Part shown: piece after piece, positions 12,740 through 34,946 of the stretch
Position numbering within the stretch: position 1 is the stretch's first letter
Layout: the number at the start of each line of letters is the position of its first letter
Source: an uncultured virus (IMG/VR IMGVR_UViG_3300050020_000041)
Taxonomy: Duplodnaviria > Heunggongvirae > Uroviricota > Caudoviricetes
Length of the DNA: 64,000 bases
IMG/VR virus record: IMGVR_UViG_3300050020_000041
Coordinates: 1 to 64,000 of that record
Direction: 5' to 3' (one strand)
Made by a program: the position numbers and the translations under genes
Notes under the pieces: generated by a model
The model's database searches: none
Told to the model about the DNA's origin: nothing
What the model saw: the letters and a program-made list of their open reading frames with translations, nothing else

Positions 12740-14204
12740 CGATATTAAGGTTATCGAAGAAGCGGGGACAAAGCCCGGAATAATAGAGGTTGCATGGTTA
12801 AGGGGAACTCAGTCACTACTGACGGTTCTTGTAGGCTTGAATCAGGCTGATCAGGACTCGTATTTCTACGTGATACTTGGGTACAAACCGAAAGACCATG
12901 ACATTAAACCCGGATTATATGTCGATAACAAGCGCTCACGATGGTCATGGATTCTTATCCCTGACGAAGGCGGTTCGTTCGACTATAATCTGGTGACCTC
13001 CGTATGGAACAAGCAGAATGTTGCCATGTTCGGGGACATTCAGGGAAAGGGCAAGCTATCGCTTCCGATAGATGCCGTTATAGGGGTGAGTCCGCAGTAC
13101 GCACAAGACCTTTCAATGATTTTTTCCAGTACAATCAGAACAATGCCCGGAATATCCAGACATGATACCGGTGTTGTCGAAGAGTGGGGCAGGGCGGGAA
13201 AGAGTCTGATCAAAACCGAATCCATTGTAGCCGTCAATCTGGGTACGTGGCATGTCTTCCTGTCCAATGGGCAGATGAAGGATTATGTCACTACGTTGGT
13301 AAGACCGTTCCTTAGTCCAGCGACATACCGGAAATGGATCGAAAGATGTTATGTAAGGCAGAACGGACTAAGCATTTCAGATATCGATAGCATCGTTGGT
13401 CCTTTAAGCACCGACCGAGGCAGAAGCGTCGGACATTTCTACCGAATAGGAGAACTCAAAAAGTCAGCACCGGTCTTCGAGCTTTACGAAAAGTTATATA
13501 TGCTTCGTAAGGTGAACAAGATTATCGTAACAACCCAGTCGGAATATGAAGTGAAAGATGTATTCCCGAGTGGCGTTCCTCATATCCTTGATTTCACAGC
13601 CGAATGCAGGAGAGATGTTTATCTGAAGAAGATGAGCCAGACTGCAGTGGCTATTTTTAATTCCCGCGTTGAATCAGCCCCGACCGCTCCGATAGAAGCG
13701 GCGGCTGTAGGATGCATCCCGTTATTGGCTAATTGTACTTGGGTTAATGATACCTTCGGCGCTCATGGATGGAAGTTCATTTACAATTCGATGGATGAAG
13801 CTGCCAAGATGATTGAGGATATTTTCCAGCATTACGAAGAGTACGCCAAGTACGCCAGGGAATTTGTAATCCAGTATTACAATGCTAATGTCAAGGGCGC
13901 GGAGTTCATGTCTTTAATAAGAGGCATCTCGGAAGGGGAGAACACAATCCTGAGAATGTCGGACGATCAGTTCGAACACTTCTGCGATGAATCCAAGCTG
14001 GTAGACTCACTGAAATTTGTAGAGGGACATGAAGGAGTTTCCTGGGACGAAGTAAATACGAAGTTATATATGCCTCGCAACCGCTTAGGGAAGCCAGTAG
14101 TGCTCACAAAATATGATGTACCGGCAATTCTGATTAGGAAATTCAATCTGTGGGACGATCTGAAAAGTCCGTATCCGTTTTATGAATCATGGTCGGAGGC
14201 GTAA
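12687..14204 (+). CDS. GT-B fold glycosyltransferase
   Basis: AVAIFNSRVESAPTAPIEAAAVGCIPL EX7E motif; paralogous to neighbours. Confidence 0.7.
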   Translation: MKIPQRYLVNFLLAKANDDIKVIEEAGTKPGIIEVAWLRGTQSLLTVLVGLNQADQDSYFYVILGYKPKDHDIKPGLYVDNKRSRWSWILIPDEGGSFDYNLVTSVWNKQNVAMFGDIQGKGKLSLPIDAVIGVSPQYAQDLSMIFSSTIRTMPGISRHDTGVVEEWGRAGKSLIKTESIVAVNLGTWHVFLSNGQMKDYVTTLVRPFLSPATYRKWIERCYVRQNGLSISDIDSIVGPLSTDRGRSVGHFYRIGELKKSAPVFELYEKLYMLRKVNKIIVTTQSEYEVKDVFPSGVPHILDFTAECRRDVYLKKMSQTAVAIFNSRVESAPTAPIEAAAVGCIPLLANCTWVNDTFGAHGWKFIYNSMDEAAKMIEDIFQHYEEYAKYAREFVIQYYNANVKGAEFMSLIRGISEGENTILRMSDDQFEHFCDESKLVDSLKFVEGHEGVSWDEVNTKLYMPRNRLGKPVVLTKYDVPAILIRKFNLWDDLKSPYPFYESWSEA

Positions 14205-14920
14205 TGAAAGTATTATTGTTAGCGCCTCATGCAGATGATGAATTGCTGGGGGCTGGCGGGATGTTGCTCCGGATGAAGAATGAAGGTCACGAAGTATTAT
14301 GTGTCCTGGTGGCTTTATCTGATATTCAAATGAACGGTGTCGGTCTGGTTACAAGGGGGACGAGAGGAACTGAGTTTATAAATTCCTGCAAAGTGCTTTG
14401 TACCGAGAAACCCGTCCTGTTGAACTACATCGACTCGAAGCTGGATACAGTTCCCATCAGTGGCATCATTAAAGATCTGGAAGGTGTAATTGAGTTCTTC
14501 CATCCCGACATAGTGCTTATCCCCGAGCCATCGTTTCATCAGGACCATCAGGTCGTGCATAGAGCCGGTATTGCGGCATTAAGACCAATGGGAATCTGGC
14601 AACCAAGTCAGATACTGCTTTATGAAGTACCAAATTCAAGATGGCATAATGCTGAGACAGCGTTCACTCCGAACTATTATGTGGACATACATGATACTAT
14701 CGAGGAGAAGAAGCGTCTGTTCAAGGATGCGTATGCCTCACAGCTAAGATTTATCGTTAGAAATGAAACCGGTATAGAAACTCAGGCTCGATACAGAGGC
14801 TATGAAGCTGGATGTGAATATGCGGAGGCATTTTATTTGCTGAAGGAAGTCAGAAGATGCGCAACAAGTAGAAAAGATTTAATAGATCAGATAATAAAAC
14901 CAAGGGTGGAGAAATGTTAA
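14204..14920 (+). CDS. PIG-L/LmbE family N-acetylhexosamine deacetylase
   Basis: LAPHADDE, HQDH, YEVP, PNYYVDI, YASQ, AEAF motifs; TAATG coupling. Confidence 0.9.
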   Translation: MKVLLLAPHADDELLGAGGMLLRMKNEGHEVLCVLVALSDIQMNGVGLVTRGTRGTEFINSCKVLCTEKPVLLNYIDSKLDTVPISGIIKDLEGVIEFFHPDIVLIPEPSFHQDHQVVHRAGIAALRPMGIWQPSQILLYEVPNSRWHNAETAFTPNYYVDIHDTIEEKKRLFKDAYASQLRFIVRNETGIETQARYRGYEAGCEYAEAFYLLKEVRRCATSRKDLIDQIIKPRVEKC

Positions 14921-16032
14921 AGGAAATAGTATTTGTACCGATCAGACAGAAAGATCAGCTCGTAACAAGCATATCGAAATTTGCTCAGCTGGAAGCCAAC
15001 ATCCTGAAGACTAAGTATAAGCTGATAATAGCGGGCACTTATGAGGACTGGCAGGTAGAAGGAGTCGAATATACCAACACGGTGTTCACCACGAAAGATT
15101 ATGCATTAGGCGGATGGTCGGAGAGATGGAACCAGTTGGCAAAATATGTCAACAATGATAGACTGTTTTATTTCCATTCGCCGTTCCCCTGTCTGGAGTT
15201 TTACAACCATACGTTTGTGAAGGGTTTCGTATTTCCGAAGATCATGCTGAGATTACATGGTGGTCCGGGTGAAGTAGCGGGCATGGCGGCATTGTATTCG
15301 GCTCTGTTACCCTCGATGTTATTTCCGACTCTGATGGGGAGTAAGGCGGCAGTTGCTAATCAGAAGAAATATTTGCTCAAGGCAGGCATAGTGCCAGCTA
15401 AGTTTGGCAAGGACTGGTATGTTCATCACCCAGCGCCGATATATCTGGACGAAATTGACAAAGCTGAAGCAGTCCCAGAAGAATTTCCCACGATACAGTT
15501 GGCAACGATTCATATGTATCCGGTTATAGTAAGACCTGATAGGCTGCTGCCCGTTATGCAGAAGTTGTATGAATCGGGTGTGAACTTCAAGGGCGTATTG
15601 AATATCGTAGACGAATACGGAGCTGATGATTTCAAGAACCTTCCGTACCTGTTGTATAACAACAAGCCAGAAAGAGAAAAATATTATAGCGAGATAAAAA
15701 GCCGGCATATCTTCCTGTGCTTCTACGCTTACCATACGGGCGGAGTTACGTTCCTTGAAATGATTTATGCGGGCATGGTGGGAGTATTCTGGGAAGCTGA
15801 GTACGTTCATGAGAAACTGCCCGGATATCCGTTCATAGTAAAGACAGAGAATGAAGCAGTCGCAATGATTAAATGGATTATCGACAATTTCGATGAAGCT
15901 AAAGCGAAAATGGAGCCGTTTAAGAAATACATAAAAGATCAGTACAACCCGGATGCCTGGGGGAACAGATTGTTAGAAGTTGTGAAAGATGTGGAAACCA
16001 AATTATTCAAGAGAGGAAACGATGAAGTGTAA
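14914..16032 (+). CDS. GT-B fold glycosyltransferase (divergent)
   Basis: HIFLCFYAYHTGGVTFLEMIYAGMVGVF and LPGYPFIV parallel the 11258 protein. Confidence 0.6.
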   Translation: MLKEIVFVPIRQKDQLVTSISKFAQLEANILKTKYKLIIAGTYEDWQVEGVEYTNTVFTTKDYALGGWSERWNQLAKYVNNDRLFYFHSPFPCLEFYNHTFVKGFVFPKIMLRLHGGPGEVAGMAALYSALLPSMLFPTLMGSKAAVANQKKYLLKAGIVPAKFGKDWYVHHPAPIYLDEIDKAEAVPEEFPTIQLATIHMYPVIVRPDRLLPVMQKLYESGVNFKGVLNIVDEYGADDFKNLPYLLYNNKPEREKYYSEIKSRHIFLCFYAYHTGGVTFLEMIYAGMVGVFWEAEYVHEKLPGYPFIVKTENEAVAMIKWIIDNFDEAKAKMEPFKKYIKDQYNPDAWGNRLLEVVKDVETKLFKRGNDEV

Positions 16033-17377
16033 AAGATTTGTACTATGGAGTGGCGGAGCGGATTCGACGTATCTGATTTATAAGAGCCTTCAGGATGGCT
16101 ATGAGGTAACGGCGGGCTATGCGGAGATTATGAACAATACTGATAAAACCAAAATGGAACTTGCAGCAATCGAACTGATGCTTCCATTTTTCAATGCTTT
16201 CCCGGATTTTCGTTATGTCGGTCCGGCGGCAAAGACATCCTTGGAGCATCATCCGAGTTCCGGAGTGGTATTCTGGCAGTTACCGACGTGGTTATTCACC
16301 CTTCAGTTTATGAGGGGAGACTACGATGAGCTGGCAATCGGATATGTTATGAATGATGATGCTATATCGTACTTGAACGAGATAGAGGCGTGGTACAAGG
16401 CTGGCAGACCATTTTCGAAATGCGAGGAAGAAAGGGATGCAAAATTAGTATTCCCGCTGTCGAAGTTTAAGAAGGATGAAGGTCTAAGAGGACTGCCGGA
16501 GAATATCAAGTCTCTAACGGTCTGGTGCGAAAGTCCGGAGTTTGATGAAGGAACTCAGAAATGGCTGGCATGCAGAAGATGTCACACTTGCACAGCCCAA
16601 AAAGATTACAGACCGGATGAAACCTTTGTGAAGTCGAAAGCTTTGAAAGACTATAAACTGGGAGATCCGGTGTTAGAGGAACCAGTAATTGATGTTTCAG
16701 AAAAGGTGGACGAAAGAGAGGATAAACAGCTCGACCTTAGAAAAATGCGGGCGAAGTTGATCCTAACGGAGAAGGAAGCCTTCAAGTTCAATCCGCACGT
16801 TGAAGAAGTCCCCCCAGTTCAGCCATACGTCGAGGAGGAAGATTTTATCGAGACGTTACATACAGCAAAGCTGAAATCAAAGTTCACGCATGAAGAGTCG
16901 GCAGATCTGGTCGATATACTCGGGACGCCGGAAGAGAAAGAGTGGATAGTTAACAAGAACGTAATCGAAACAGCCAGGGACATTGTGGAGTATGAACTGA
17001 TTACCAGAACGACTCCGACTAGTCCCCAGCTTGTTGAGATTTACGAGAGAATCGACAAAGCGTTAAAGAATATGAAGTTCCCCAAGGTACCGACTTTTGC
17101 AAGGACAAATTTCTTCAAGGGAAGTCCGGAGGACGGAGAATTACCAAAGATGACTCTGGTAGCGAAGGGCGGCAAAATATCGGTAGTGGAAACAGATAAG
17201 TTACACGAGGCGTTCGATGCCAAGGATGATATAAAATTCATAGAGCCGGTGCTGGCAGAAGAATTCAAACTGAAGGGAGACTATAAATTAGATGATGCTG
17301 TTAATCTGGCAATCGACGGCGAGAACATAGAAGAAATAGTAACGCAAGTACCATTATTGGAGGTCCAATGTCATTAG
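16022..17377 (+). CDS. QueC-like PP-loop ATPase with long acidic C-terminal extension
   Basis: VLWSGGADS PP-loop; FPL...K; TVWC...CRRCHTC zinc motif; about 250 extra C-terminal residues. Confidence 0.7.
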   Translation: MKCKRFVLWSGGADSTYLIYKSLQDGYEVTAGYAEIMNNTDKTKMELAAIELMLPFFNAFPDFRYVGPAAKTSLEHHPSSGVVFWQLPTWLFTLQFMRGDYDELAIGYVMNDDAISYLNEIEAWYKAGRPFSKCEEERDAKLVFPLSKFKKDEGLRGLPENIKSLTVWCESPEFDEGTQKWLACRRCHTCTAQKDYRPDETFVKSKALKDYKLGDPVLEEPVIDVSEKVDEREDKQLDLRKMRAKLILTEKEAFKFNPHVEEVPPVQPYVEEEDFIETLHTAKLKSKFTHEESADLVDILGTPEEKEWIVNKNVIETARDIVEYELITRTTPTSPQLVEIYERIDKALKNMKFPKVPTFARTNFFKGSPEDGELPKMTLVAKGGKISVVETDKLHEAFDAKDDIKFIEPVLAEEFKLKGDYKLDDAVNLAIDGENIEEIVTQVPLLEVQCH

Positions 17378-17802
17378 AACCGATTGAAATGATGCAAAGT
17401 ATAGCCCTGAGAGATGCGTTCTTCCATTATCTGAAAGAACATGGCAAGGAAGTTAAATGGCAATGGCTATGTGAATGGGAATTTACAGACGAATATAAGT
17501 TCGGCAGATTATGTCACGCTGAAGACCGCTCTAAAATAATGGGAGTCAAGTTGGAAACAGACAGAATGCTGGCTATGCTCGATTTGCATCGTGAGGACGG
17601 CTTCCTTCATTGCATAAGGGAAGTATGCGAGGCATTACTGGATGAATTAAATGAAATCTTCGAAGGGCAATCGATAAGAATATTGGATATCAAGTTATCA
17701 GAGCCGGTTATAACGACGCCGCTATTCGTAGATAATGATCTGCCCGAGCACCAAGTAAGAACAAAACAGTTTATTTTTATAAAATATAGGACAAGAATAT
17801 GA
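17368..17802 (+). CDS. Hypothetical protein
   Basis: 144-aa ORF with GGAGG RBS. Confidence 0.55.
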   Translation: MSLEPIEMMQSIALRDAFFHYLKEHGKEVKWQWLCEWEFTDEYKFGRLCHAEDRSKIMGVKLETDRMLAMLDLHREDGFLHCIREVCEALLDELNEIFEGQSIRILDIKLSEPVITTPLFVDNDLPEHQVRTKQFIFIKYRTRI

Positions 17803-18542
17803 GCGAGAACATAGTTGACGGCATGACTAAAATAGTTCAGCTGGACGTAGATCTGATAGATGAGAACGAATGGAATCCAAATTTGATGAGTGATGCCAAG
17901 TTTAACAAGTTAACAGAAGAAATTGAAACCATGGGAATGATGGATCCGATTCAGGTAGTTCCTTTGGAAAATGGCAGATACCGAATACTCGGTGGAGCGC
18001 ATAGGTTCAACGCCTGTTTAATATTAGGCTTTGAGAAAATACCAGCGATTATACTGGATGATCCGAAATTCCAGGATCTTGACTACCAGAAACTTTTGAC
18101 AACCCGATTAAATTTGATCCATGGTAAAATGACTCGGGATAAATTCAGTGCGTTATATGAAGACCTAGCCAAACGGCATTCCGACGAAGTTATCCGGGAC
18201 TCGATGGCTCTTATCGATAAAAACGAATGGGATCAGATGAAGAAAGAATTACTGATTAACATGAAGGAGCTTCTACCGCCAGGTTCACCGTTACTTGATA
18301 ACTTCGAGGACACAGTGAAGGAACTTAGAACCCTTGATGATATGACAAAATTATTGGAAAGCATATTCCATAAAAAAGAGAAAGGGGAGAAGTTCAATAA
18401 GATCCTCGCATTCGGAACTGGTGGCGGTAAGGTCGTATACTTCTCCATAGATGATGAAATATGGGGAGCTTTACAGAAGTTAAAGTCTATAGCTGACACT
18501 ACCGACATCAAGATGGATGAAATTCTTGATAAAGCTATGTAA
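17799..18542 (+). CDS. ParB/Srx-like N-terminal domain protein
   Basis: NEWNPN, GMMDPIQV, YRILGGAHRF. Confidence 0.85.
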   Translation: MSENIVDGMTKIVQLDVDLIDENEWNPNLMSDAKFNKLTEEIETMGMMDPIQVVPLENGRYRILGGAHRFNACLILGFEKIPAIILDDPKFQDLDYQKLLTTRLNLIHGKMTRDKFSALYEDLAKRHSDEVIRDSMALIDKNEWDQMKKELLINMKELLPPGSPLLDNFEDTVKELRTLDDMTKLLESIFHKKEKGEKFNKILAFGTGGGKVVYFSIDDEIWGALQKLKSIADTTDIKMDEILDKAM

Positions 18543-18654
18543 TGCACTTAGATTCGAAAGACGCATATTCCCGTGGATTGCGTCTTCTTGATTTAGCCAG
18601 CCCTTCCCGGTGTTCTTACCGGTCTGATACCTGCAAGCCTCAATGATAATACTG

Positions 18655-18690
18655 ACAAATAGATTTATTCACACGACGAAATTGATTGCA
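18655..18690 (-). repeat. Bipartite intergenic element, copy 1
   Basis: Minus strand reads TGCAATCAATTTC-gtcgtgtga-ATAAATCTATTTGT. Confidence 0.65.
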
Positions 18691-18697
18691 GGATAAT

Positions 18698-19435
18698 ATG
18701 ATTGACCACGATATACGATTTGTAGCGATAACACAGATAGAGGAGAACGAATTTAATCCGAATTCCATGGATGGCAAGGCATTCGAGAGATTACTTAAAG
18801 AAATACAGACATCCGGATTTATTGCAGCCATACAGGTCGTACCGTTGGATAATGGGAAATTCAGGATTATAGGCGGAGCACACCGATATAAAGCCGCCCT
18901 GAAACTGGGTTTTCATGAACTTCCCTGCGTGGTGCTGGCAGATGCTCAGTTCAAGTCAGAGGACGTACAAAAATTCTTGACAGTGAAACTTAACATGCTG
19001 TCGGGAGAATTAGATCCTGACAAATTCCGAATCTTATATGAGGAAATGGCTGAGAAGTACGGAGAAGAATCGTTACAGGACCTCTTCGGATTCACTGATG
19101 AGACTGAATGGGAGGCGGTAACCAAGGCTATTAAGAGAGAATTAAAAGATAACGGCTTCACGGAAGAGCAAATTGACAAGGCATGGGAAGAAGCTGGCGA
19201 AGATAAGTCCATAGAGAATTTAAGTCGCATCCTGAATGGGATATTTTCAGAGAACGGGGAAACCCTGAATAGCCGTGGCTACATGATATTCGATTTCGAG
19301 GGGAGCAAGATGTTTTTCATGGATGTGGACAAGAAAGTATTCAAGTTTTTTGATGAGATGCAGATCAACGAAGATCCAGCGCAGTTGAACGGAAAATTAT
19401 TAGAAGTATTGCAGAAGGCAGCCGGCAATAGCTAG
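18698..19435 (+). CDS. ParB/Srx-like N-terminal domain protein (paralog)
   Basis: NEFNPN, IQVVPLDNGKFRIIGGAHRY; alignable over its full length with the 17799 ORF. Confidence 0.85.
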   Translation: MIDHDIRFVAITQIEENEFNPNSMDGKAFERLLKEIQTSGFIAAIQVVPLDNGKFRIIGGAHRYKAALKLGFHELPCVVLADAQFKSEDVQKFLTVKLNMLSGELDPDKFRILYEEMAEKYGEESLQDLFGFTDETEWEAVTKAIKRELKDNGFTEEQIDKAWEEAGEDKSIENLSRILNGIFSENGETLNSRGYMIFDFEGSKMFFMDVDKKVFKFFDEMQINEDPAQLNGKLLEVLQKAAGNS

Positions 19436-22434: not shown

Positions 22435-23214
22435 ATGGTAAAGATCAACCCGGAAGGCGCAGGGACGCCAAGTTTTAATGGAGTGTTTAGGAGACCGTCT
22501 GCCAAGAAACCGGAGAGCCATCAGGCATCCCTGGAGACTTTAACATGTTTTCCTGAATTGAAAGCCAGGGTACAGGCGGGCTGGCCGTCCCAGAGAGTAG
22601 CGGATTACATCGAGACCACTTATCCAGCAGAATATGCAGGTCTGGGCATGGTCAAGGGAGAGTTAATCGATCACCTGAATTCGTTCAGAAAAGCATTGAC
22701 GCCACTGGAGACGGTGGCTATTCGTATGCCGGCTGAAGTAATCAAGGCAAAAGAGAAGATTGATGCAGGTCTGGATATCATGGCCGAGATGCAGGAGCTT
22801 TATGCGATCCAGAAGGGGCGTATCAATATTGATGTCGGTACAGAAAAGAAATTAAACAAGTTGTTTAAGACAACAGGAAATGAAATTGCGATAGCCGCAG
22901 CTCTGTTAAGAGATCTTGCTGCGATAATGGGAGATCTGGGAGTGAACAAGGGTAATCCGGGTGAAGAAGCGGCAGTAAGAAAACAGTTAATAACCGATTT
23001 CGGTTTGAAGTATGGGAAAGACTCGGTAGCCAAAGTGCTTAACGATCCAAGAGCAGTTTCCAAGGTATTAGGAGTGGCTGAGAGTTTATTCAAGTCCATA
23101 AGGGCTGGGGATGTGGCAGGTCTTCTTGCGGAAGTCCAGGCAGAAGAAAAGCCGGCGATGATAGAATTGCAAGTAATAGAAAAGAATGAAAAAGTATTAG
23201 AGGATGTGGTATGA
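22435..23214 (+). CDS. Hypothetical helical protein, candidate terminase small subunit
   Basis: N-terminal HTH-like GWPSQRVADYI, helical body, lies shortly upstream of terL; positional inference only. Confidence 0.35.
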   Translation: MVKINPEGAGTPSFNGVFRRPSAKKPESHQASLETLTCFPELKARVQAGWPSQRVADYIETTYPAEYAGLGMVKGELIDHLNSFRKALTPLETVAIRMPAEVIKAKEKIDAGLDIMAEMQELYAIQKGRINIDVGTEKKLNKLFKTTGNEIAIAAALLRDLAAIMGDLGVNKGNPGEEAAVRKQLITDFGLKYGKDSVAKVLNDPRAVSKVLGVAESLFKSIRAGDVAGLLAEVQAEEKPAMIELQVIEKNEKVLEDVV

Positions 23215-23978
23215 AATGGTCAATATGGTTTATAGTGCTTTTGTCATATCAGGTATGCGCTCAGGATCTTTCGCTTCGGAAAAATAGCCCATGTAGAGGT
23301 GCTGGCGATACCGTAAAGGTAAATGGACAACGGATTAAGACGGATATACTGGGAAATCCAGTGCCTTATAATCATCCGGATCTTGGAGCTTATCAGTATC
23401 AGGAGCCGCTACCAGTGCAACTGATCTCTTTTAAGGGGAAAACTTTAAGAGACAATTACGTTGAGCTTGTGTGGGTGACAGCGACGGAAGTAAATTTTCA
23501 TGGATTTGAGATAGAAAGAAAACTTTGGATGGGCAGTCCCTGGGAGAAGATCGGCTTCGTGGCGGCCCAAGGGAATAGCAATAAGGGTAAAGAGTATATG
23601 TTCTCAGATAAGCTCTCCATGGCAGGGGTTATTGCTTATCGCCTGAATCAGGTGGACAACGATGGTGGCTCGGTACATTCGAATATTATCGTGGTGTCAA
23701 TGTTACCCAAGGAATTTACCGTCTCGAACTACCCGAATCCATTTAATCAAGAGACGACGATCAGATATTCGCTCCCCTATGACTGTAAGGTAAGACTGAC
23801 GGTCTATAATGTCATCGGGAGTAAGATAGAGTCATTCCCAGATGAAATGCGCACACAGGGCAGTTACGAGGTCAAATGGCGCGGTCGGTACGCCGGCGTG
23901 TATATCCTCGCAATGACGACCAAGCGGGCAAACGGAAATCAGCATACGGCAGCAATCAAAATGGTGTTACTGAAATGA
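23211..23978 (+). CDS. Secreted protein with T9SS type-A C-terminal sorting domain
   Basis: Signal peptide (..VCA/Q); PDLGAYQY; PLPVQLISF Ig-like module (WVTATEVN..GFEIER, YRLNQVDNDG); NYPNPFNQETTIRYSLP...LTVYNVIG...AGVY...KMVLLK. Confidence 0.85.
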   Translation: MKWSIWFIVLLSYQVCAQDLSLRKNSPCRGAGDTVKVNGQRIKTDILGNPVPYNHPDLGAYQYQEPLPVQLISFKGKTLRDNYVELVWVTATEVNFHGFEIERKLWMGSPWEKIGFVAAQGNSNKGKEYMFSDKLSMAGVIAYRLNQVDNDGGSVHSNIIVVSMLPKEFTVSNYPNPFNQETTIRYSLPYDCKVRLTVYNVIGSKIESFPDEMRTQGSYEVKWRGRYAGVYILAMTTKRANGNQHTAAIKMVLLK

Positions 23979-24192: not shown

Positions 24193-25380
24193 ATGATAGA
24201 ACTCATTGATGGTCGTAATATAAGTAAACAGACTCCGGAGGAGGTACAGAAACTTCTAAAGAGGGATGTAAGGTCACTTTCACCTGAAGAGATGGAAGTG
24301 ATGCAGCTTATTATGGCTGAAATGACCGGCGGTAAAACTGGGTTACTTGAGCTAATGAACGAACTAGAGTTCCAAGAACCCATGGTAGATATCGAAACAT
24401 GGCTGACAGATCCGTACCACTTCGGAAAAGTGCATAACCTCTGGCCCAAGTTAATCGATGACATGATAGAGATGTTCAATGGAGAGTATTATGAGGTTAT
24501 TTTAACTGGTTCACTCGGCTGGGGCAAGACCTACATGGCTAAAATAGCAGCCTGCAGAGTGTTCTATGAGATGAGCTGTTTACGCAATCCGCAGAAGTCT
24601 TTTGGATTGGCTCCTGATTCCCTGATAGCATTCCTGGCGATTTCATTGTCAGAGCAGACTGCTCGTAAAGTAATCTTCGAAGATCTTCAGGGTATGCTCA
24701 CGATGAGTCCGTATTTCAACGAGAAGTTCAAACCGAAACTGACTCAGAAGGAAATAAGATTCCCGAATAACGTATGGGCGACTCCAGCTTCCAGTACGGC
24801 AAATGCAGGTATAGGAAGTAACGCAATCGGTGCAATCATGGATGAGTCGAACTTCTTGGGAGCTATGAGCAAGGAAATGAAGGCTTCACATGCCCGTCAT
24901 GGTCATGTAGATAATGCAGAGTTACTATATGCTCAGGTAAGTCGTAGAATCAAGTCCCGGTTTAACAAGTTTGGAAAAATGCCAGGGAAACTGTTTCTGG
25001 TTTCATCCAAAAGAACCACGACCGATTTTACTGAAAGAAGAATTGCTGAGGCAAGAGAAGATCCCAACGTATTCGTAAGAGAATATTGCTTAACTGGCGA
25101 CACTCCGATTAAGATCCCGCTGAAAGGCATAATTGCTATTAAAGATTTAGTCGGCGTGGAGAATTTTAGGACCGTATCGGTAGATCCAGCCACAGGTCAG
25201 GGCGTTCTGGGTAAAGGGCATTCAGCTCAGCGGACAGGAGTTAATGTCCCTGTTTATAAAATCACGATGGAAGATGGCTCTGTAGTGAAAGCTACGAAGG
25301 AGCATCCGTTCCTTATGAACGATTTAACTTATGTGGAACTTCAGAACTTAAAGGTGGGCGATGAATTGTTCAGCTTTTAA
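24193..25380 (+). CDS. terL: Terminase large subunit N-terminal (ATPase) half fused to split intein N-fragment
   Basis: Walker A GSLGWGKT, Walker B AIMDE, LVSS coupling motif; ends in a 97-aa intein N-fragment starting CLTGDT. Confidence 0.85.
   Translation: MIELIDGRNISKQTPEEVQKLLKRDVRSLSPEEMEVMQLIMAEMTGGKTGLLELMNELEFQEPMVDIETWLTDPYHFGKVHNLWPKLIDDMIEMFNGEYYEVILTGSLGWGKTYMAKIAACRVFYEMSCLRNPQKSFGLAPDSLIAFLAISLSEQTARKVIFEDLQGMLTMSPYFNEKFKPKLTQKEIRFPNNVWATPASSTANAGIGSNAIGAIMDESNFLGAMSKEMKASHARHGHVDNAELLYAQVSRRIKSRFNKFGKMPGKLFLVSSKRTTTDFTERRIAEAREDPNVFVREYCLTGDTPIKIPLKGIIAIKDLVGVENFRTVSVDPATGQGVLGKGHSAQRTGVNVPVYKITMEDGSVVKATKEHPFLMNDLTYVELQNLKVGDELFSF
25087..25377 (+). mobile_element. Split intein N-fragment (IntN, 97 aa)
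   Basis: Block A CLTGDTPI, VYKITMEDG, block B ATKEHPF (TxxH), ends LKVGDEL, then stop codon. Confidence 0.9.
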
Positions 25381-25852
25381 CATAGCGGAAGAGTCGCCCA
25401 AGAACCATCTGGAAATGATATCGAAACTTTATACTGGCGATTCAGATCTGTATGCATGGCAGGCGAAATTAGTGAAGGCGGTGAAGGTTGTCTCGGTAGA
25501 GAAGATCCCTGAAATAGCCAATGACGTTTATAGGCTGATCAAAATGTTCCAGGCGAAGCAGTGTTACCAGAATGCTTATCAGGTGGCTTCGCACATATCG
25601 GGAGTCGAATATGTCGAGGGCTTCGCAGATATAGTCGGAATACCGATTGACCATGCTTTCAACGTCTACAAAGGTCAGTATTTCGATGTGACGGGCGAGC
25701 TGGTATTGAAAAGAGAAGTTGAGAAGGACGTTTATTTCAAGGTTATGACGTATAGCCACAGCGAAATGAACAAGTTGGCGGTAGCGACAGGCACGTATGG
25801 TGGCTATCTGAAGGCGTATTACAAGTTATTTATTAAAAAAGAAGCAGCATAA
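25361..25852 (+). CDS. Hypothetical protein with putative Cys-His-Asp (transglutaminase/papain-like) triad
   Basis: KQCYQNA...YVEG...IDHAFNV...YFDVT. Confidence 0.5.
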   Translation: MNCSAFNIAEESPKNHLEMISKLYTGDSDLYAWQAKLVKAVKVVSVEKIPEIANDVYRLIKMFQAKQCYQNAYQVASHISGVEYVEGFADIVGIPIDHAFNVYKGQYFDVTGELVLKREVEKDVYFKVMTYSHSEMNKLAVATGTYGGYLKAYYKLFIKKEAA

Positions 25853-25861
25853 GGAGAAGTT

Positions 25862-26191
25862 ATGAAAGAGGTTAAAATAAGTTCGCTGGCAGAAGATTTT
25901 GAAATACTGGGTGGGAAAGTTCCGGAAGATTTGATCCCTTCGATTATGGAGGAAAAGAGATTGGCGGAGAAAGGAGTTTATTCGAAATTGAAACTGGGCG
26001 ATACTATTGTTGGTGATGATGGGAAACCAGTGTTGAACGCCGGCACTATAGAAGTATTGGTATTGGACAATGCCACCATGGAGAAATTAAAGGATGGTAG
26101 CATCAGATTTGTCGGGGAATTTAATGGCAAGCAATCGCAATGGATATTCTCTGCGAAAGAACTCAAGGCAATAGCGGGATTCTTGAAATAA
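25862..26191 (+). CDS. Hypothetical protein
   Basis: AGGAGA RBS; 109 aa; stop directly precedes the IntC ATG. Confidence 0.65.
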   Translation: MKEVKISSLAEDFEILGGKVPEDLIPSIMEEKRLAEKGVYSKLKLGDTIVGDDGKPVLNAGTIEVLVLDNATMEKLKDGSIRFVGEFNGKQSQWIFSAKELKAIAGFLK

Positions 26192-26192
26192 C

Positions 26193-26300
26193 ATGAAGCG
26201 CATCGCAAAAATAGAATTTGATGGTAATGAAGATGTCTATGATATCGAGGAAGATAGCTGTCATAATTTCACGCTGGCAAATGGATTAGTAGTCCATAAC
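26193..26300 (+). mobile_element. Split intein C-fragment (IntC, 36 aa)
   Basis: MKRIAKIEFDGNEDVYDIEEDSCHNFTLANGLVVHN/S: block F VYDI...HNF, block G HN, +1 Ser. Confidence 0.92.
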
Positions 26301-27356
26301 AGTCAGTGGGGAGCTAAGGATGCTAAGATATTCATGCCTGAGAGGTTTAAGGTGCTGGTCGGTAATTCAGTATTATCTTCTAAGGTATTGGAAGATGGAG
26401 AAGATGTCACTGAATACGAGGGTATGGAAGAAGTTCAGATTATCGATGTACCCATGGACTTCTATGATGATTTTATGAGAGATACCGATACAGCATTGAG
26501 AGATCTTGCCGGAGTAAGTACGGTGGCTATTACGCCGTTTATAAGGAACCGTAAGAAGATCATGGATGCAGTAGATAATACTTATCAGCATCCGTTTACT
26601 CAGGAAGTCTGGGATATGACTGACAGAGGTAAGTTCCTGACAGAAGCATTATTTAAGATTAACGAGTTTGGTGAAAGAGTACCAAGATTTCACCCGGAGG
26701 CATCCCGTCATGTCCATATTGACGCTTCATTGAGGGGAGATGCCACTGGGCTAGCTATCGGGCACATTTACGGATACAAAGAGATCCGGAAAAAGGTCGG
26801 TCCGATAGTAACGGTGGAAACACGCCCGCTGATTCAAATCGACCTGATGTTAAGGATTCATCCAAGGATGGGAGAAGACATAATTTTCCAGGATATCAGG
26901 AAGTTGATATACGCTTTGCATGAAATGGGAATGCCCATAAGATACATATCGATGGATTCGTACCAGTCTGCGGACAGCATCCAGGCGTTCAAAGCCCGCG
27001 GATACGAGTCGGAAGTAGTGTCGGTAGATAGACCGATGAAGGCTTATGATACATTGAAGCAAACTTTATATGAAGACCGTTTGAAAATGTACCCGTATCA
27101 GCCGGCTCAGGAAGAATTAAGAAGATTAGAATTTAATGCATATAAGGGAAAAGTCGACCATCCCGATGATTATTCAAAGGATGTAAGCGACGCAATCGCT
27201 GCGGTAGTATTCACGCTGGCGACGAAATACCCAGGTGAAGGCACTTCATTTTATTCGGAGTCATCGAGAAGTAAGCCGGGCGAAAGAATAAGTGCTTCGG
27301 CGGAGGCTGAGGATGCGGGCGATTCAGGTTTTGATGGGTTTGTTCAAGTAGATTAA
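26193..27356 (+). CDS. terL: Split intein C-fragment fused to terminase large subunit C-terminal (nuclease) half
   Basis: Begins with 36-aa IntC ending HN, then Ser+1; RNase-H-like HIDAS..GD, SMDSYQS, KVDHP..SKDVSDA. Confidence 0.85.
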   Translation: MKRIAKIEFDGNEDVYDIEEDSCHNFTLANGLVVHNSQWGAKDAKIFMPERFKVLVGNSVLSSKVLEDGEDVTEYEGMEEVQIIDVPMDFYDDFMRDTDTALRDLAGVSTVAITPFIRNRKKIMDAVDNTYQHPFTQEVWDMTDRGKFLTEALFKINEFGERVPRFHPEASRHVHIDASLRGDATGLAIGHIYGYKEIRKKVGPIVTVETRPLIQIDLMLRIHPRMGEDIIFQDIRKLIYALHEMGMPIRYISMDSYQSADSIQAFKARGYESEVVSVDRPMKAYDTLKQTLYEDRLKMYPYQPAQEELRRLEFNAYKGKVDHPDDYSKDVSDAIAAVVFTLATKYPGEGTSFYSESSRSKPGERISASAEAEDAGDSGFDGFVQVD

Positions 27357-27372
27357 AATAAGGAGAAATGTT

Positions 27373-27462
27373 ATGGCAACTGAACTGAAAGACCTAACTG
27401 TAGAGCTGGACGAAATCATCCAGCAGTTAGAAAAGAAACCAGAGCCGGTACCAGCGAAGTAA
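27373..27462 (+). CDS. 29-aa micro-protein (amphipathic helix)
   Basis: AGGAGA RBS; MATELKDLTVELDEIIQQLEKKPEPVPAK. Confidence 0.55.
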   Translation: MATELKDLTVELDEIIQQLEKKPEPVPAK

Positions 27463-28705: not shown

Positions 28706-30466
28706 ATGGCAGGAATTAAGAATTTAGGCTTTATAAAGTTACTGTTCAGCGATCAGACTGACACGCCGGCAATAGATCCAAAAACAGGTCAAGCTCCAGT
28801 ACGAGTAGCAGCAGGCGGAGCAGCGTCATCGTTGTATGTCAGACACGGCTATGAAGACTTGTATGAACATTTGAAGGTAAGTCAGGATCTGATCACCCGA
28901 TATATCGATTACGAAAATATGGATGATAGCGATCCCATCATAGGAAGCGCATACGATATTTACGCTGATGATGCAACCCAGATGGATTATAAGCTGAAGA
29001 AAACCATGTGGGTGGACTCGCTTGATGATACTACGAGGACGTACCTGAATAACTTCCTTGATAATACCCTGAAGGTAGAAGAGAATATTTGGGAACAAGC
29101 CAGAACGATTGCAAAATACGGTAATGATTTTGAAGCCATCCTGTATGATGATAAGGGCGTTAATGGTCTTGACTTTATTAGTCCAGCTATTGCCAGGAGA
29201 TATGAAGTCGGTGGGAAGACAGCATTTGGTGTCGATTACCAGGGCAAGTTCAATTACAAAGATCAGGAAGTTATTGATGCGGTAGCCGGGAATGTCAGAC
29301 ATCAGGAGTCCTCGACCTTCTTCGATAACTGGGAGATGATTCATTTCAGACTCAGGACCAAGAATCGCGGAAGCAGATATGGATTCGGATTAGCCGAGAA
29401 CGCAAGATGGGCATGGAAACGGTTACAGTTGTTAGAGGACGCCACGATACTGTATAAGATTACGAGATCTCCCAACAGACTGGTTTATTATGTAAATACT
29501 GGCAACAAGTCACCGAAGGAATCCAAAGCCTTCATGAAAGAACTTCAGAGAGAGTATCGAAAGAAGAGTTATATCAATCCAAGAACGGGCAAGTTGGAGT
29601 TCTCAACGAATCCGCTCGCTCAGCAGGAAGATATCTGGGTTGGTGTACGCGACTCGAAAGATCCGACCAGAATAGAGAATCTTCCAGCACTGGATTACCA
29701 GAGCCTTGATGAATTGTCGTATTACAGGAATAAAGAATTCGCGGGATTAAAGATTCCCAAGAGATTCCTGACCTACGATGAAACGGCAGATTCCAGAACA
29801 GCTGGTTCCAACGAAGATATCCGTTTCGCAAGAACGGTATTAAGGCTTCAGAGGGAGCTGCTGGTCGGTTATAATAAGATTATCGGTGTAGATTACTCGA
29901 TAAGGGGCGTCGACTACAGAAAATTGGACTATACTCTTAAAATGGCTGTCCCATCGACGGCATTTGAGATAGCCAATCTGGAAGTAGAAAATACCAAGGT
30001 GGCTCTTGCCGCTCAATTAGATCCGTTCGTCTCTAAGGAATGGATTTTAACAAGGATACTGGGTATGGCGGAAGCAGATGCTAAGGTAGTGCTCAGACAG
30101 AAGACCAGTGAGGTAAGTGCGGATCTGAAGGCTCAAAACGCTGCATTACAGGCAAGCCCACCAGCAGAAGAATCCACATACACTCGTGGCAACATGTTAA
30201 GGGAAGCGATGTTGGTTGGTAGAGAGGATAAATTACGTAATTCCCGTGAATGGGCGGTAAGGGAGAAAAATCTCGACAAGAGATTAAATGAAATCATGGA
30301 CAGTAACTATGTCAATGGTGAAAAATTTAAGGATATGAAAAAGCTCATGTCTCAGATCCTTGAGATGCAGAAAGGTATCAAGATTTCAGGAAAGAGGTCA
30401 AGTTTCGGTGGTGGCGTGGAAGATGATTCAGAAGGTAGAGTAGATGCGTCGAAGTATTTCGAATGA
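28706..30466 (+). CDS. Portal protein (T4 gp20-like)
   Basis: YENMD, AYDIYADDAT, LLEDATILYKITRSPNRLVYYVNTG, QEDIW, GLKIP, EDIRFARTVLRLQ. Confidence 0.9.
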   Translation: MAGIKNLGFIKLLFSDQTDTPAIDPKTGQAPVRVAAGGAASSLYVRHGYEDLYEHLKVSQDLITRYIDYENMDDSDPIIGSAYDIYADDATQMDYKLKKTMWVDSLDDTTRTYLNNFLDNTLKVEENIWEQARTIAKYGNDFEAILYDDKGVNGLDFISPAIARRYEVGGKTAFGVDYQGKFNYKDQEVIDAVAGNVRHQESSTFFDNWEMIHFRLRTKNRGSRYGFGLAENARWAWKRLQLLEDATILYKITRSPNRLVYYVNTGNKSPKESKAFMKELQREYRKKSYINPRTGKLEFSTNPLAQQEDIWVGVRDSKDPTRIENLPALDYQSLDELSYYRNKEFAGLKIPKRFLTYDETADSRTAGSNEDIRFARTVLRLQRELLVGYNKIIGVDYSIRGVDYRKLDYTLKMAVPSTAFEIANLEVENTKVALAAQLDPFVSKEWILTRILGMAEADAKVVLRQKTSEVSADLKAQNAALQASPPAEESTYTRGNMLREAMLVGREDKLRNSREWAVREKNLDKRLNEIMDSNYVNGEKFKDMKKLMSQILEMQKGIKISGKRSSFGGGVEDDSEGRVDASKYFE

Positions 30467-30954: not shown

Positions 30955-31752
30955 ATGAAAAAAACACATGTTCTAACCTCATTGGACGAAGACTTAATAG
31001 CATTAGGTCTGGTTACTCCAATCGTGGAAGCAGTTGTTCCCGCAGTAGTCCCCGCAGTTATTCCCGCAGTAGTCCCCAAAGTTATTCCCGCAGTTGAACC
31101 AGCTTCAAATCTTGATGAAATCAAGATACTCAAATTGAAGACCGGCTCGGCAGCTCGTTTAGCTAAGAAAAAAGCTAAGAGATACTACAAACAGAACAGA
31201 AGCAAACTGAAATCTAAAGCAAAGAAATTCAGACACTCTTCTGCCGGTAAAAAAAGTCTATTCAAAAGAGCGAAAGCAATCAAAAGATTAGGCATTGCTA
31301 AAATCACCGCAATTCACAAATCCGGAAAAAGAATCTCTCTTGCAGCTTCCGTCCAGGATGAAGCATTAGAAGTTTTACAAAAAATGTCCCAGATACTCGC
31401 TCTTGTTGAGGAAAATGTGACACCATTGTTTGAAAGTGAAGATGCATTGGTTCAGGAATACATTGAGTTCATAGCTGACGGCTCAGAAGAAATATCTGAA
31501 GTCATCGAAGATCTCGAAACTGAAATCGAGGAAGCTACCGAGGAACTCGACGAAGAAGCAGTTGAAGAAGTATTATACGAACTCGCAGAGGAAGTATACG
31601 AAATGCTCGATACCTATGCCGACTTAATCGCAATCAACGAGGATGCAGATCCTGAAGTTGTTCCTGCGGTTGTCCCAGCAGTAGTTCCTGCGGTCGTTCC
31701 TGCAGTAGTTCCCGCGGTTGTTCCCGCTGTAGAACCAGCAGCAGTCGTTTAA
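30955..31752 (+). CDS. Putative prohead core/scaffold-like protein with (VPAV)n repeats
   Basis: AGGAGA RBS; lies between portal and protease; VPAV repeats at both ends, central K/R-rich segment, E/D-rich segment. Confidence 0.55.
   Translation: MKKTHVLTSLDEDLIALGLVTPIVEAVVPAVVPAVIPAVVPKVIPAVEPASNLDEIKILKLKTGSAARLAKKKAKRYYKQNRSKLKSKAKKFRHSSAGKKSLFKRAKAIKRLGIAKITAIHKSGKRISLAASVQDEALEVLQKMSQILALVEENVTPLFESEDALVQEYIEFIADGSEEISEVIEDLETEIEEATEELDEEAVEEVLYELAEEVYEMLDTYADLIAINEDADPEVVPAVVPAVVPAVVPAVVPAVVPAVEPAAVV
31030..31104 (+). repeat. 12-bp tandem repeats encoding (V/I)PAV
   Basis: gttcccgcagta-like units, about 6 copies. Confidence 0.85.
31657..31749 (+). repeat. 12-bp degenerate tandem repeats encoding VPAV
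   Basis: About 7 copies with synonymous variation. Confidence 0.85.
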
Positions 31753-32053: not shown

Positions 32054-33514
32054 ATGAGTTATTTAAGAGAATTATTGACCGATAGCCAGACTGTTATTTT
32101 CGAACTATATGAAGATAAAGATTTTCCTGGCGTTATAAAGGGAAGAGGTCCGTTCGGTAAATGCGATAGACCTACTGCGAACGGCAGAGTTTATCCCAGA
32201 CCGATAATGGAAAGGGAAGTTGCCAAGCTTCAACCCGCCATTAAAGCAAGAAAATTAAAGGGCGAATTAGACCATCCTGGCGACGGCAAAACAAAATTGA
32301 CAAGAGTATCGCATATCATCACGGAGCTAAGTATCGGGGAAGATGGCATAATCACTGGCGGGCTGGAAGTATTGCCTACCCATAATGGTCAGGATTTGTC
32401 GGCTTTAATCGGCGCAAGAGTACCGGTGGATGTCTCTAGCCGAGGATTTGGCTCAGTAAAGTTATCGGAAGAGAAATTACCTGATGGTCGTCCTCTCCAG
32501 ATAGTGCAGAGCGATTACAGTTTGAAAACATGGGACTGCGTAGATGAAGGCGCTGCCGGAGAATTTGCAGAACCAGTATACACCAAGGAAGGTGTTGACG
32601 AAACGGGCAATCCGATCATATTGCCTGATGTAGAGACCGCTGAAGATCCTGATTTGGAACTCAACGGTATGAAAGAAGCTCAGCAGGTCCTCATTACAAG
32701 AAACGAGTTCTTAGAGTCCGAGATAACAAGATTGAATTTAGAAATCGGACAGCATGTTGAGGAAGATACAGCATTAACGCTGAAGATGTTGACTTTCGCT
32801 GGTGCAGCTAAAAGAGCTGGCTACGAGTTGTTTACTGAAAAAACATTAAGGGGCGTAACTTCGGAAGTAAGGGAAGAAGTTCTCGGACTCATTGGGGACG
32901 TATCTCTGTTCGAGGATCTCGCATCGTTATCCACGAAACTAAAAGAAGTAATTGAAAAAATTAAAGCCAAAATAGTAATGGCTCCTGTACCTGCGGTAAA
33001 ACCGAAGGTCGTTGAAAATATTGTATCAACTAAGAGAGATCTTCTGGCTAGCAAAATAGCTGAGAGGAAATCTGGCAGAACTGAAAGAGCACCAGTACCT
33101 GCCCTCACGGTAGAGAATGAAGATCCGCTACCTTATGGGGAGAACAGTGCTTTACAAAACTACGCTGGTAGTCTGGCGATGAAATCAGGCATAACTGCTG
33201 GGGAGCTTGAGCTTCTCGAAGTAGCCATGATTGAAGAGCTGGTCGATAGCGAAGAGGAAGTCTATGGTACGTTAGACAATTTCCTCAAGGATAGAGGGCG
33301 TCAAGCGCAAATTAAAAAGGATGTATCCCACAAGAATGGGCTGTTTGAAGATGTTCAGAGGAGGTTGAAGGCGAATAAGAATTTGTCTTTGACAGAAGAA
33401 GTCGTCGGCAATGTAGGTGAGAATAACAGAGTTCCAAGCAAGAAAGGCACAGATGTGTGCGGAGTATCGATGGAAGAACTGATTAGAATCAGCGACGAAA
33501 GCCGAAAAAAATAA
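32054..33514 (+). CDS. Prohead protease (T4 gp21-like) fused to a scaffold-like C-terminal region
   Basis: NGRVYP, GELDHP, RVSH, VSSRGFGS, TWDCV; long helical tail. Confidence 0.85.
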   Translation: MSYLRELLTDSQTVIFELYEDKDFPGVIKGRGPFGKCDRPTANGRVYPRPIMEREVAKLQPAIKARKLKGELDHPGDGKTKLTRVSHIITELSIGEDGIITGGLEVLPTHNGQDLSALIGARVPVDVSSRGFGSVKLSEEKLPDGRPLQIVQSDYSLKTWDCVDEGAAGEFAEPVYTKEGVDETGNPIILPDVETAEDPDLELNGMKEAQQVLITRNEFLESEITRLNLEIGQHVEEDTALTLKMLTFAGAAKRAGYELFTEKTLRGVTSEVREEVLGLIGDVSLFEDLASLSTKLKEVIEKIKAKIVMAPVPAVKPKVVENIVSTKRDLLASKIAERKSGRTERAPVPALTVENEDPLPYGENSALQNYAGSLAMKSGITAGELELLEVAMIEELVDSEEEVYGTLDNFLKDRGRQAQIKKDVSHKNGLFEDVQRRLKANKNLSLTEEVVGNVGENNRVPSKKGTDVCGVSMEELIRISDESRKK

Positions 33515-33548: not shown

Positions 33549-34946
33549 ATGGAAGCTCGCGAAATGTTCCTTGAGGGTAACCTTGCACCCGGTTTAAGAG
33601 CACAGCTTTTAGACAAATGGAAAGGTATGGTAAAAGATGTTAACGGTAAAAGAAATGCCGAGAACACTGCCATGATTCTTGAGAACCAAATGGTTCACAT
33701 GAAAGGTATGATGAACGAAGCAATGTCTACTACAGCAGTAGCTGAGTATACCAAGTTCATTTTCCCTCTCATCCGCAACGTATGGCCGAATTTGATAGCA
33801 AATAACGTTGCCTCTGTTCAACCAATGGACGGACCAATCGGCGCAATCGCTTTTTATAAGAATATTTATGGTACCACAAAAGGCACCATCACAAAAGGCG
33901 ACGTGTTCCCTAAAGTCGATCATTTTGATCCGACTTACTCCAAAGCCGAAACATTTGTAGAAAACGAATTGCTCGGAACCGGAGACACCAGTGCAAGAGT
34001 CACCACATTCTTCAAACAGTTAAGCCGTGGTAAAATCAATCCAGGAACCCTGTCAGTTACAGCTGGCTCAGTTACTGCTATTGATGATGGAAATGGCGGA
34101 CTTGTTGGAGAGGGTGTTGTTGCCGGTGTTGTGAACTATGAAACTGGCGTTATGACAGTAGTGTTCGTGACTGGTCCTTCAGTTGGAACTCCTGTTACCG
34201 CAAGTTATTCCTACCCAGTTGAGAATACCGACCAAGGTATTTCCTCTGTTGAAGGCGATCTTGACATCATACCTGTAAGAGCTGGTTCAAGGAAACTTGT
34301 CAGTTTATACTCGGTTGAGACAGCTGAAGACATGAAAGCTCTCTGGGGAACTGATGCTGAAGCTGATTTAGTTTCTGCTTCCGGTTCACAGGTTGCTCTT
34401 GAAGTCGATAGAGAACTTGTTGGTATGATCTATGCCAACGTTAAAGCAGCTCATTCGACCACTTGGGATTACGTCTACGATCCGACCACAAGTCAGATCA
34501 CATTGCAAGATCACATCAGAACTCTGATTGCCCGTATTAGCTCTATGTCTCAGAAAGTCTACAAAGCTACTCTGAAACAGCAGGCGAACTGGATAATCAC
34601 CAGTCCTGAAATCATAGCATTCTTGGATCAGCTTCCTGAATTCGTTTCCACCCTTGGAAATCTTGAATTTCAGTTAGGCATCCAGAAAGCTGGAACTTTG
34701 AATGGTAAATGGTTAGTGTACTCAGATCCGTTCTTGACCTCTAACGTAATCCTCGTTGGTTACAAAGGTCCTGGATTTGCTGATTCTGGTATCTGCTATG
34801 CGCCATACATTCCAATCCAGTTGACACCGACATTCTTCAATCCTTCTTCGTTCCAAATGAGCAAGGGTATAAGAACAAGGTATGCTGCTAAGATTCTTAG
34901 CAACAACTATTTCGGAAAAGTAACTGTTACGAATATGCCGTTCTAA
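33549..34946 (+). CDS. Major capsid protein (T4 gp23-like)
   Basis: AMILENQ, PNLIA..VASVQPM.GP, EVDRE, ANWIITSP, GTLNGKW.VY.DP, VGYKG, YAPYIP, GIRTRYA. Confidence 0.92.
   Translation: MEAREMFLEGNLAPGLRAQLLDKWKGMVKDVNGKRNAENTAMILENQMVHMKGMMNEAMSTTAVAEYTKFIFPLIRNVWPNLIANNVASVQPMDGPIGAIAFYKNIYGTTKGTITKGDVFPKVDHFDPTYSKAETFVENELLGTGDTSARVTTFFKQLSRGKINPGTLSVTAGSVTAIDDGNGGLVGEGVVAGVVNYETGVMTVVFVTGPSVGTPVTASYSYPVENTDQGISSVEGDLDIIPVRAGSRKLVSLYSVETAEDMKALWGTDAEADLVSASGSQVALEVDRELVGMIYANVKAAHSTTWDYVYDPTTSQITLQDHIRTLIARISSMSQKVYKATLKQQANWIITSPEIIAFLDQLPEFVSTLGNLEFQLGIQKAGTLNGKWLVYSDPFLTSNVILVGYKGPGFADSGICYAPYIPIQLTPTFFNPSSFQMSKGIRTRYAAKILSNNYFGKVTVTNMPF

Follow-up and report, generated by a model that had tools for sequence, protein, structure and literature searches.

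A phage large terminase gene in two reading frames with fragments of a predicted, conventionally split intein

Fractured phage genes, the halves of which each carry one part of a split intein, have been known since 2009. Dassa et al. (PMC2677866) reported 26 fractured loci in which a nuclease gene separates the split-intein halves, and one gp41 locus that lacks such a gene. The N parts of these inteins have 88-105 aa and the C parts 33-54 aa, in all but the sole terminase, which shows an unusual break and a 122-aa C part. A review table (PMC11766414) gives GOS-TerL (37/115 aa), AceL-TerL (25/104) and Cat-TerL (30/104) for split inteins of large terminases (TerL). Here, we describe the terL gene of an uncultured Caudoviricetes virus (IMG/VR record IMGVR_UViG_3300050020_000041, whose positions 1 to 64,000 are the window analysed), which consists of two open reading frames (ORFs) that carry an N-terminal (IntN) and a C-terminal (IntC) intein fragment, respectively. 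This gene fits the fractured-gene model of 2009, and its mechanism is not new. It is distinguished by a TerL host with a conventional break, by gap genes that match no nuclease and by a series of alleles at one site that is unusually complete.

Like gp41-1, gp41-8, NrdJ-1, IMPDH-1 and gp41-7, the window terL encodes a phage enzyme and is broken in place where the endonuclease insertion would lie; its fragment sizes lie in the range of the Dassa loci, and its downstream start is probably coupled to an upstream gene, as there (PMC2677866). The long strands of the two fragments are polarized N-positive/C-negative, as in gp41-1 and gp41-8. Unlike the Dassa loci, the window locus combines a TerL host with a conventional break and has Ser+1 instead of Cys; its gap holds two genes without nuclease match, whereas the gaps described in 2009 contain a GIY-YIG or Vsr gene or nothing. 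In GOS-TerL, AceL-TerL and Cat-TerL, as in the window, the large terminase of a phage contains a class 1 intein that is naturally split (PMC11766414). However, these three are short-N inteins (IntN of 25-37 aa, IntC of 104-115 aa) with Cys+1, whereas the window intein is 97/36 with Cys1/Ser+1. The original prediction had drawn this contrast for AceL-TerL and GOS-TerL, and the sizes in the review table bear it out. It had also stressed a DnaE-like long-N/short-C geometry: the geometry stands, but not as a novelty, being usual for split inteins (Dassa et al. 2009) and present at two further TerL sites.

Cyanobacterial DnaE split inteins have the same geometry and a 36-aa IntC (PDB chains 7qil, 4lx3, 4qfq), but the sequence match is weak (E ~1e-5 to 1e-3) and both host and site are different. 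Moreover, the DnaE halves are genomically unlinked and N-negative/C-positive (PMC2677866), whereas the window halves are adjacent, with the opposite polarity of the long strands. AceL NrdHF is a typical-break phage fractured gene (98/48) with a GIY-YIG gene between its halves but the host protein is another one and, unlike the window intein, it belongs to class 3 (PMC7891396). MIJ3 PolB associates a typical-break split intein with an HNH gene and has, as here, a contiguous mini-intein relative, but in a different host protein (PMC6892783). The literature, mainly open-access and without InBase, yielded no conventionally split TerL intein, which is weak evidence of absence; the available parts of PMC8228797, PMC10343443, PMC12707363, PMC5389665 and bioRxiv 10.1101/2025.01.02.630785 have no bearing on such a split.

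Terminase halves and intein fragments

Class 1 protein trans-splicing very probably yields a TerL of 649 aa from this gene. Two precursors, probably translated from one transcript, would be involved: the ATPase part (residues 1-298) followed by IntN (97 aa), and IntC (36 aa) followed by the lid/nuclease part (351 aa). IntN and IntC would assemble into a class 1 intein fold. After an N-S shift at Cys1, Ser+1 would accept the N-extein and Asn36 would cyclise, freeing a TerL with the junction REY-SQW.

The ORF list of the window gives 395 aa for 24193-25380 and 387 aa for 26193-27356, the positions at which the original prediction had placed the two ORFs; IntN and IntC have the sizes announced there, occupying residues 299-395 of the first ORF and 1-36 of the second. 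IntN matches TIGR01445 with 37.4 bits (cut-off 24.5) and IntC matches TIGR01443 with 22 bits (cut-off 15.6), so that the proposed search with Hint/intein hidden Markov models was positive for both fragments; Pfam Intein_splicing also matches both, below its whole-domain cut-off. All the canonical splicing residues previously claimed were found, and they are those of class 1: Cys1, block B Thr70-x-x-His73, block F Asp17, block G His35-Asn36 and Ser+1. The features of class 3 inteins are absent, since Cys1 is present and Asp17 stands at the block F position; IntC Cys23 is replaced by Phe in another allele (L011, see below). The 97/36 sizes and the break at the endonuclease insertion region are those of a conventional split. 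Furthermore, in an alignment with 13 contiguous alleles, the end of IntN and the start of IntC coincide with the edges of the inserts. Within limits that we chose on the sequence, the long strands are oppositely charged (IntN 38-61, +3; IntC 1-21, -5). A sequence search of IntN against PDB gave two matches (E up to 0.01), and the 77.8-kb record holds only one IntN and one IntC match.

The two exteins together make up one terminase sequence. Residues 1-298 of the N-extein align to residues 1-298 of an intact 652-aa homolog (P0003) with 63% identity, and residues 1-321 of the C-extein to its residues 299-619 with 62% identity, the junction showing neither gap nor overlap. It is likewise gap-free on P0007, P0015, P0016, P0059 and P0061. 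Hence, the expected continuous alignment of the joined exteins with intact TerL homologs, with the junction REY-SQW, was obtained. In tblastn, the N-extein matched 343 phage records, the top rows of which are annotated as terminase large subunit or hypothetical. An AlphaFold2 (AF2) model of P0003 (19 sequences, pLDDT 79.7) matches the HK97, Sf6, D6E and T4 terminases in Foldseek. In this model, strand 293-298 ends at the intein site; from known TerL anatomy, we take this strand to be the final one of the ATPase core, so that both the lid/linker and the nuclease would belong to the C-half. The names given to the C-extein domains (lid/linker, nuclease) are likewise assumed from that anatomy. As in TerL proteins, a P-loop ATPase and an RNase H-like nuclease are present, close to portal and capsid genes. 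No second terL was found by tblastn in the 77.8-kb record.

Alternatively, the two halves could cooperate without a covalent bond, with the intein parts serving mainly as a dimerization clamp and splicing being slow, partial or dispensable. This would agree with an intein-free TerL encoded in two ORFs (L017 and L018, see below), where separate halves are possibly tolerated, and with split NrdA, which keeps its function in the Aeh1 genes-in-pieces ribonucleotide reductase (PMC10448857, PMC2677866). However, T4 gp17 cut at the linker retains ATPase and nuclease activities but loses translocation (PMC3012670), and TerL halves therefore probably need covalent joining. Moreover, an unspliced intein would, according to the model, stay in place where the final ATPase strand ends. 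Lastly, all catalytic residues are retained, including Ser+1, although the +1 residue of site-empty homologs (n=137) is Ala in 83, Ser in 31, Thr in 11 and another residue in 12. We consider a non-covalent pair very unlikely.

Recurrence of the split and alleles at its site

The split of terL into two ORFs is real and conserved, and is not a misassembly; we regard the gene as almost certainly functional. A separate assembly (L005) is 98% identical across the locus without any indel and keeps the IntN stop and both gap ORFs. The protein clusters of the N-half and the C-half comprise 23 and 18 members; among the 15 members listed for each, seven N-halves have 395 aa and nine C-halves have 387 aa, from several sources, and full-length halves occur on contigs of 179-185 kb. 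Part of the stretch is contained in 20 of the 24 sequencing runs listed and half or more of it in 14, five of which are possible sources; runs with small word shares (X17-X24) were left out. The runs with half or more come from peat, permafrost or soil samples. DNA contigs bridge the IntN stop (X11, 24544-25857; X8, 24593-25461), and neither a gap-skipping joint nor an indel near the stop was found in the contigs of four runs from three studies, none of them marked as source. The original prediction had pointed to 25380-26193 as the interval where a misassembly might show; L005, the clusters and the contigs all keep the split there.

Codon changes relative to L005 are mostly synonymous in the N-extein (18 synonymous, 1 non-synonymous), in the C-extein (8 and 2) and in IntC (7 and 0), and IntC is identical in the nine full-length C-half variants compared. 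These data bear on the view that this terL is dead or dying (a pseudogene or an assembly artefact), with packaging ensured by another copy or a helper phage. Such a view could draw on the incompleteness of the record and on a short contig full of frameshifts (L010, one contig of 2.3 kb, in which frameshifts affect the two intein fragments, each of the gap ORFs and the C-extein, and which was excluded as error-rich). It is nevertheless extremely unlikely, given the layout shared by L005 and by runs from several studies, the full-length halves on contigs of up to 185 kb and the codon changes just described.

RNA-library contigs, possibly derived from DNA, span 25314-25594 (IntN stop to ORF1), 25655-26225 (ORF1-ORF2-IntC) and 26095-26419 (ORF2-IntC-extein). 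They touch on another scenario, in which the 812-nt gap is removed as RNA by a group I or II intron so that a contiguous mini-intein would splice in cis. Spliced introns have been reported in the terL of ICP1 and Jug phages. Here, these contigs cross the gap without any joint, Rfam finds no intron in the gap, in L005 or in L011 (only two chance snoRNA matches below the gathering score in the gap), the gap is almost entirely coding and both alleles provide IntC with a separate start codon. An RNA intron is thus highly improbable.

The REY/S site (the slash marks the insertion point) also harbors uninterrupted inteins. A close relative, P0002 (60% over the C-extein), carries a contiguous mini-intein of 137 aa at the identical site (REY/C...N/S), with 42/96 residues identical to IntN (44%) and 18/28 to IntC. 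The TerL family was surveyed by a profile search, from which the 150 best-scoring representatives were taken; such a list favors full-length proteins and is no basis for counting split alleles. Of these representatives, 90 contain one or more long insertions and 13 a contiguous intein at REY/S. Twelve of these 13 inteins could be parsed; they have 140-363 aa, and the long alleles contain an HNH-like insert (motif recognized by eye). With the allele of the close relative, these 13 indicate that REY/S is a regular intein site of the TerL family. In a tree of 37 of the 61 IntN-like segments, chosen by similarity to IntN, 12 contiguous REY/S alleles make up a starred clade and the window IntN and P0002 fall outside it; no monophyly is claimed. 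Further split alleles at REY/S were found in the same phage lineage only (two proteins among 11 candidates; one contig; none in genome contigs), by word-based searches that are insensitive and do not show absence.

A sister allele lies on the contig L011 (1091 bp). Its C-extein shows 15 synonymous and no non-synonymous changes over 170 codons. Its IntC is 78% identical (8 amino-acid changes), with a TTG start at the same position; the DNA of the IntC start differs, but the N-terminal strand is still basic and no block F/G residue is lost. Upstream of IntC, it encodes a truncated ORF2 homolog of 53 aa and a T5orf172/MUG113 (GIY-YIG) protein. According to PMC10448857, T5orf172 proteins are phage homing endonucleases and form a subfamily of the GIY-YIG type. 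This allele suggests that the content of the gap turns over and may earlier have contained a nuclease.

Several points weigh against trans-splicing at this locus or against the history proposed for it. Trans-splicing and its product are predictions from sequence here. IntN has no synonymous and one non-synonymous change relative to L005, i.e. no selection signal, and the whole-fragment charges (-1 for IntN, -5 for IntC) show no complementarity. The window IntN sits on a long branch (0.97) and the tree does not place it as sister of P0002. L011 lacks the N-half and is possibly recombinant or chimeric, its C-extein having 0 amino-acid changes against 8 in IntC. The record is ~42% complete (CheckV), and a second terL could lie elsewhere. 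Finally, in two loci (L017:1476-5933 and L018), a distant TerL is encoded by two ORFs without any intein, the break being near residues 309-344 of P0003. Four unrelated genes (~2.5 kb) separate these halves, without any Rfam intron match, and they are possibly those of an intein-less genes-in-pieces terminase.

Gap genes and other split terminases

The two gap ORFs resemble no nuclease: scans of Pfam, NCBIfam, PHROG and the ESM Atlas gave no nuclease family match for either. ORF1 belongs to a common viral family without name (ESM Atlas viral clusters at 0.96-0.97). Its nearest named family in the ESM Atlas is YunG-like (0.86-0.87), which is a lead only, and its residues 35-161 are 30% identical to an Alistipes phage protein. 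It carries a C..H..D pattern (CYQNA, HAF, DVT), which we take to be transglutaminase/papain-like. An AF2 model of ORF1 from the single sequence was discarded (pLDDT 35). ORF2 has no match at all in the four databases. Its N-terminus (25862-25915) contains an S-L-x-E-D-F motif resembling those of a scaffold-like ORF (30955-31010) and of a head-region ORF of a relative (L003:5260-6507); this motif may serve to target proteins to the head, in which case ORF2 would be head-associated.

An IntC-like stretch of ORF1 (VKVVSVEK..DVY) was considered as an intein remnant and rejected, for it aligns with the intein-free Alistipes phage homolog and is native to that family. The same stretch is central to the idea that ribosomes shift to the +1 frame at the IntN stop (TTT TAA C) and thereby join IntN to ORF1, providing a second IntC as alternative splice partner. 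ORF1 indeed lies in the +1 frame, and the stop context resembles a shifty stop such as that of prfB. However, besides its alignment with an intein-free homolog, the stretch has no block G His-Asn and no intein-model score, and ORF1 has its own ATG and an upstream AAGGTG. Such a frameshift is extremely improbable, and the least probable of the alternatives to trans-splicing. An alternative genetic code was also rejected, the IntN stop TAA being the commonest stop in the record (33/56 long ORFs) and further stops following soon in frame.

Taken strictly, the fractured-gene definition of Dassa et al. (2009) includes a free-standing endonuclease gene between the halves, and none was recognized in this gap. 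Since a nuclease-less state has been described (gp41-7), the missing nuclease lowers the fit to the strict layout but not the place of the locus in the evolutionary series. The order of events that we infer begins with the homing of an intein into the R[DE]Y/S site. Its internal HNH-like nuclease would then have been lost, leaving a mini-intein, the state of P0002. Next, a free-standing nuclease cassette would have entered the linker of the intein and split it, a state suggested by L011. In the window lineage, two passenger genes would finally have taken the place of the nuclease gene or be what is left of it. As they share one site, the contiguous allele of P0002 and the nuclease-bearing L011 make the gene-breaking model of Dassa et al. 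directly testable on a single locus.

Other TerL relatives are split, or interrupted, elsewhere. In one of 52 loci (L052:327-3168), TerL is split close to the end of the nuclease: a 94-aa IntN and an IntC flank a free HNH-like ORF, which was recognized by eye and has no Pfam match; L058 and L060 carry contiguous inteins at this same site. Among 258 proteins, examined at the protein level only, P0055 and P0057 are TerL proteins of 650 aa that end in an IntN just past the nuclease D-H motif, at a site similar to that of L052; the P0057 cluster has 126 members, on contigs of up to 150 kb. The C-extein absent from these two proteins would be a short piece with the last catalytic aspartates. In the same set, P0002 and P0004 start with a Met-initiated basic IntC of 35 aa, at a site after Walker B. 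As P0002 also bears the cis mini-intein at REY/S, it would require one trans and one cis splice. In addition, several relatives (L057, L064-L066, L003 and L019) have several contiguous inteins per TerL, in ORFs of up to 1500 aa, and inteins are also found in downstream genes of these relatives, e.g. the portal of L003.

We tentatively propose, as a possibility to which we give less than even weight, that long-N/short-C splits arose independently at three TerL sites (after Walker B, at REY/S and near the nuclease end) and that the gap is a lasting, exchangeable cargo slot in an essential gene. The alleles at REY/S would then form a near-complete series: empty, nuclease-bearing in cis, mini-intein in cis, split with a GIY-YIG gene, and split with passenger genes. 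If so, this large, intein-rich TerL family would hold a natural and still unmined collection of distinct split inteins, possibly orthogonal and cold-active, and trans-splicing would be an obligatory post-translational step ahead of DNA packaging.

Layout, potential use and neighborhood

The features of the locus are collected in Table 1. Both halves of terL lie on the + strand in the original order and orientation, 812 nt apart. The interval of about 810 nt that was first reported is therefore correct, but the two ORFs filling it had gone unmentioned. As the TAA of ORF2 stands one base 5' of the IntC ATG, translational coupling is likely. The promoter and terminator scan is uninformative, with 11 found versus 8.1 expected and 3 found versus 2.3 expected, respectively. 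Gene callers give two hypothetical proteins for such a locus, and the terminase is overlooked.

Table 1. Coordinates of the terL halves, gap ORFs and nearby head genes in the window
Feature	Coordinates	Strand	Remarks
TerL N-extein, 298 aa	24193-25086	+	ATPase core: Walker A GSLGWGKT, Walker B AIMDE, motif III VSS; C-terminal end FVREY
IntN, 97 aa + TAA	25087-25380	+	coding nt 25087-25377, ORF residues 299-395; Cys1, Thr70-x-x-His73
Gap ORF1, 163 aa	25361-25852	+	overlaps IntN end by 20 nt; own ATG, upstream AAGGTG
Gap ORF2, 109 aa	25862-26191	+	AAGGAG ribosome site upstream; TAA one base before IntC ATG
IntC, 36 aa	26193-26300	+	Met1; block F Asp17, His24; block G His35, Asn36
TerL C-extein, 351 aa, Ser+1 first	26301-27356	+	lid/linker region (presumed) and RNase H-like nuclease domain
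T4-like portal	28706-30466	+	Pfam Portal_T4
Prohead protease	32054-33514	+	Pfam Peptidase_S77
Major capsid protein	33549-34946	+	Pfam Gp23

This locus adds a well-supported natural split intein, which has little similarity to characterized inteins, an IntC of 36 aa and a Cys1/Ser+1 chemistry. Its peat and permafrost origin makes it worth considering as a ligation tool that is orthogonal and tolerates cold; use in trans-splicing is plausible, as a candidate only.

Directly upstream of terL, a 255-aa ORF (23211-23978) matches a type IX secretion C-terminal sorting domain with 26.5 bits, for a Pfam cut-off of 27. This domain hints at a host of the Bacteroidota/Chlorobi/Ignavibacteria type. The ORF is variable between strains (L006). 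A second variable slot lies just 3' of terL (27357-27460), where one X11 contig carries 353 other letters in place of 100 nt. Farther upstream of the packaging genes, the region 10107-19435 encodes, as judged by eye from motifs, glycosyltransferase-, deacetylase- and QueC-like proteins and two ParB-like ORFs; it looks like a DNA-modification module.

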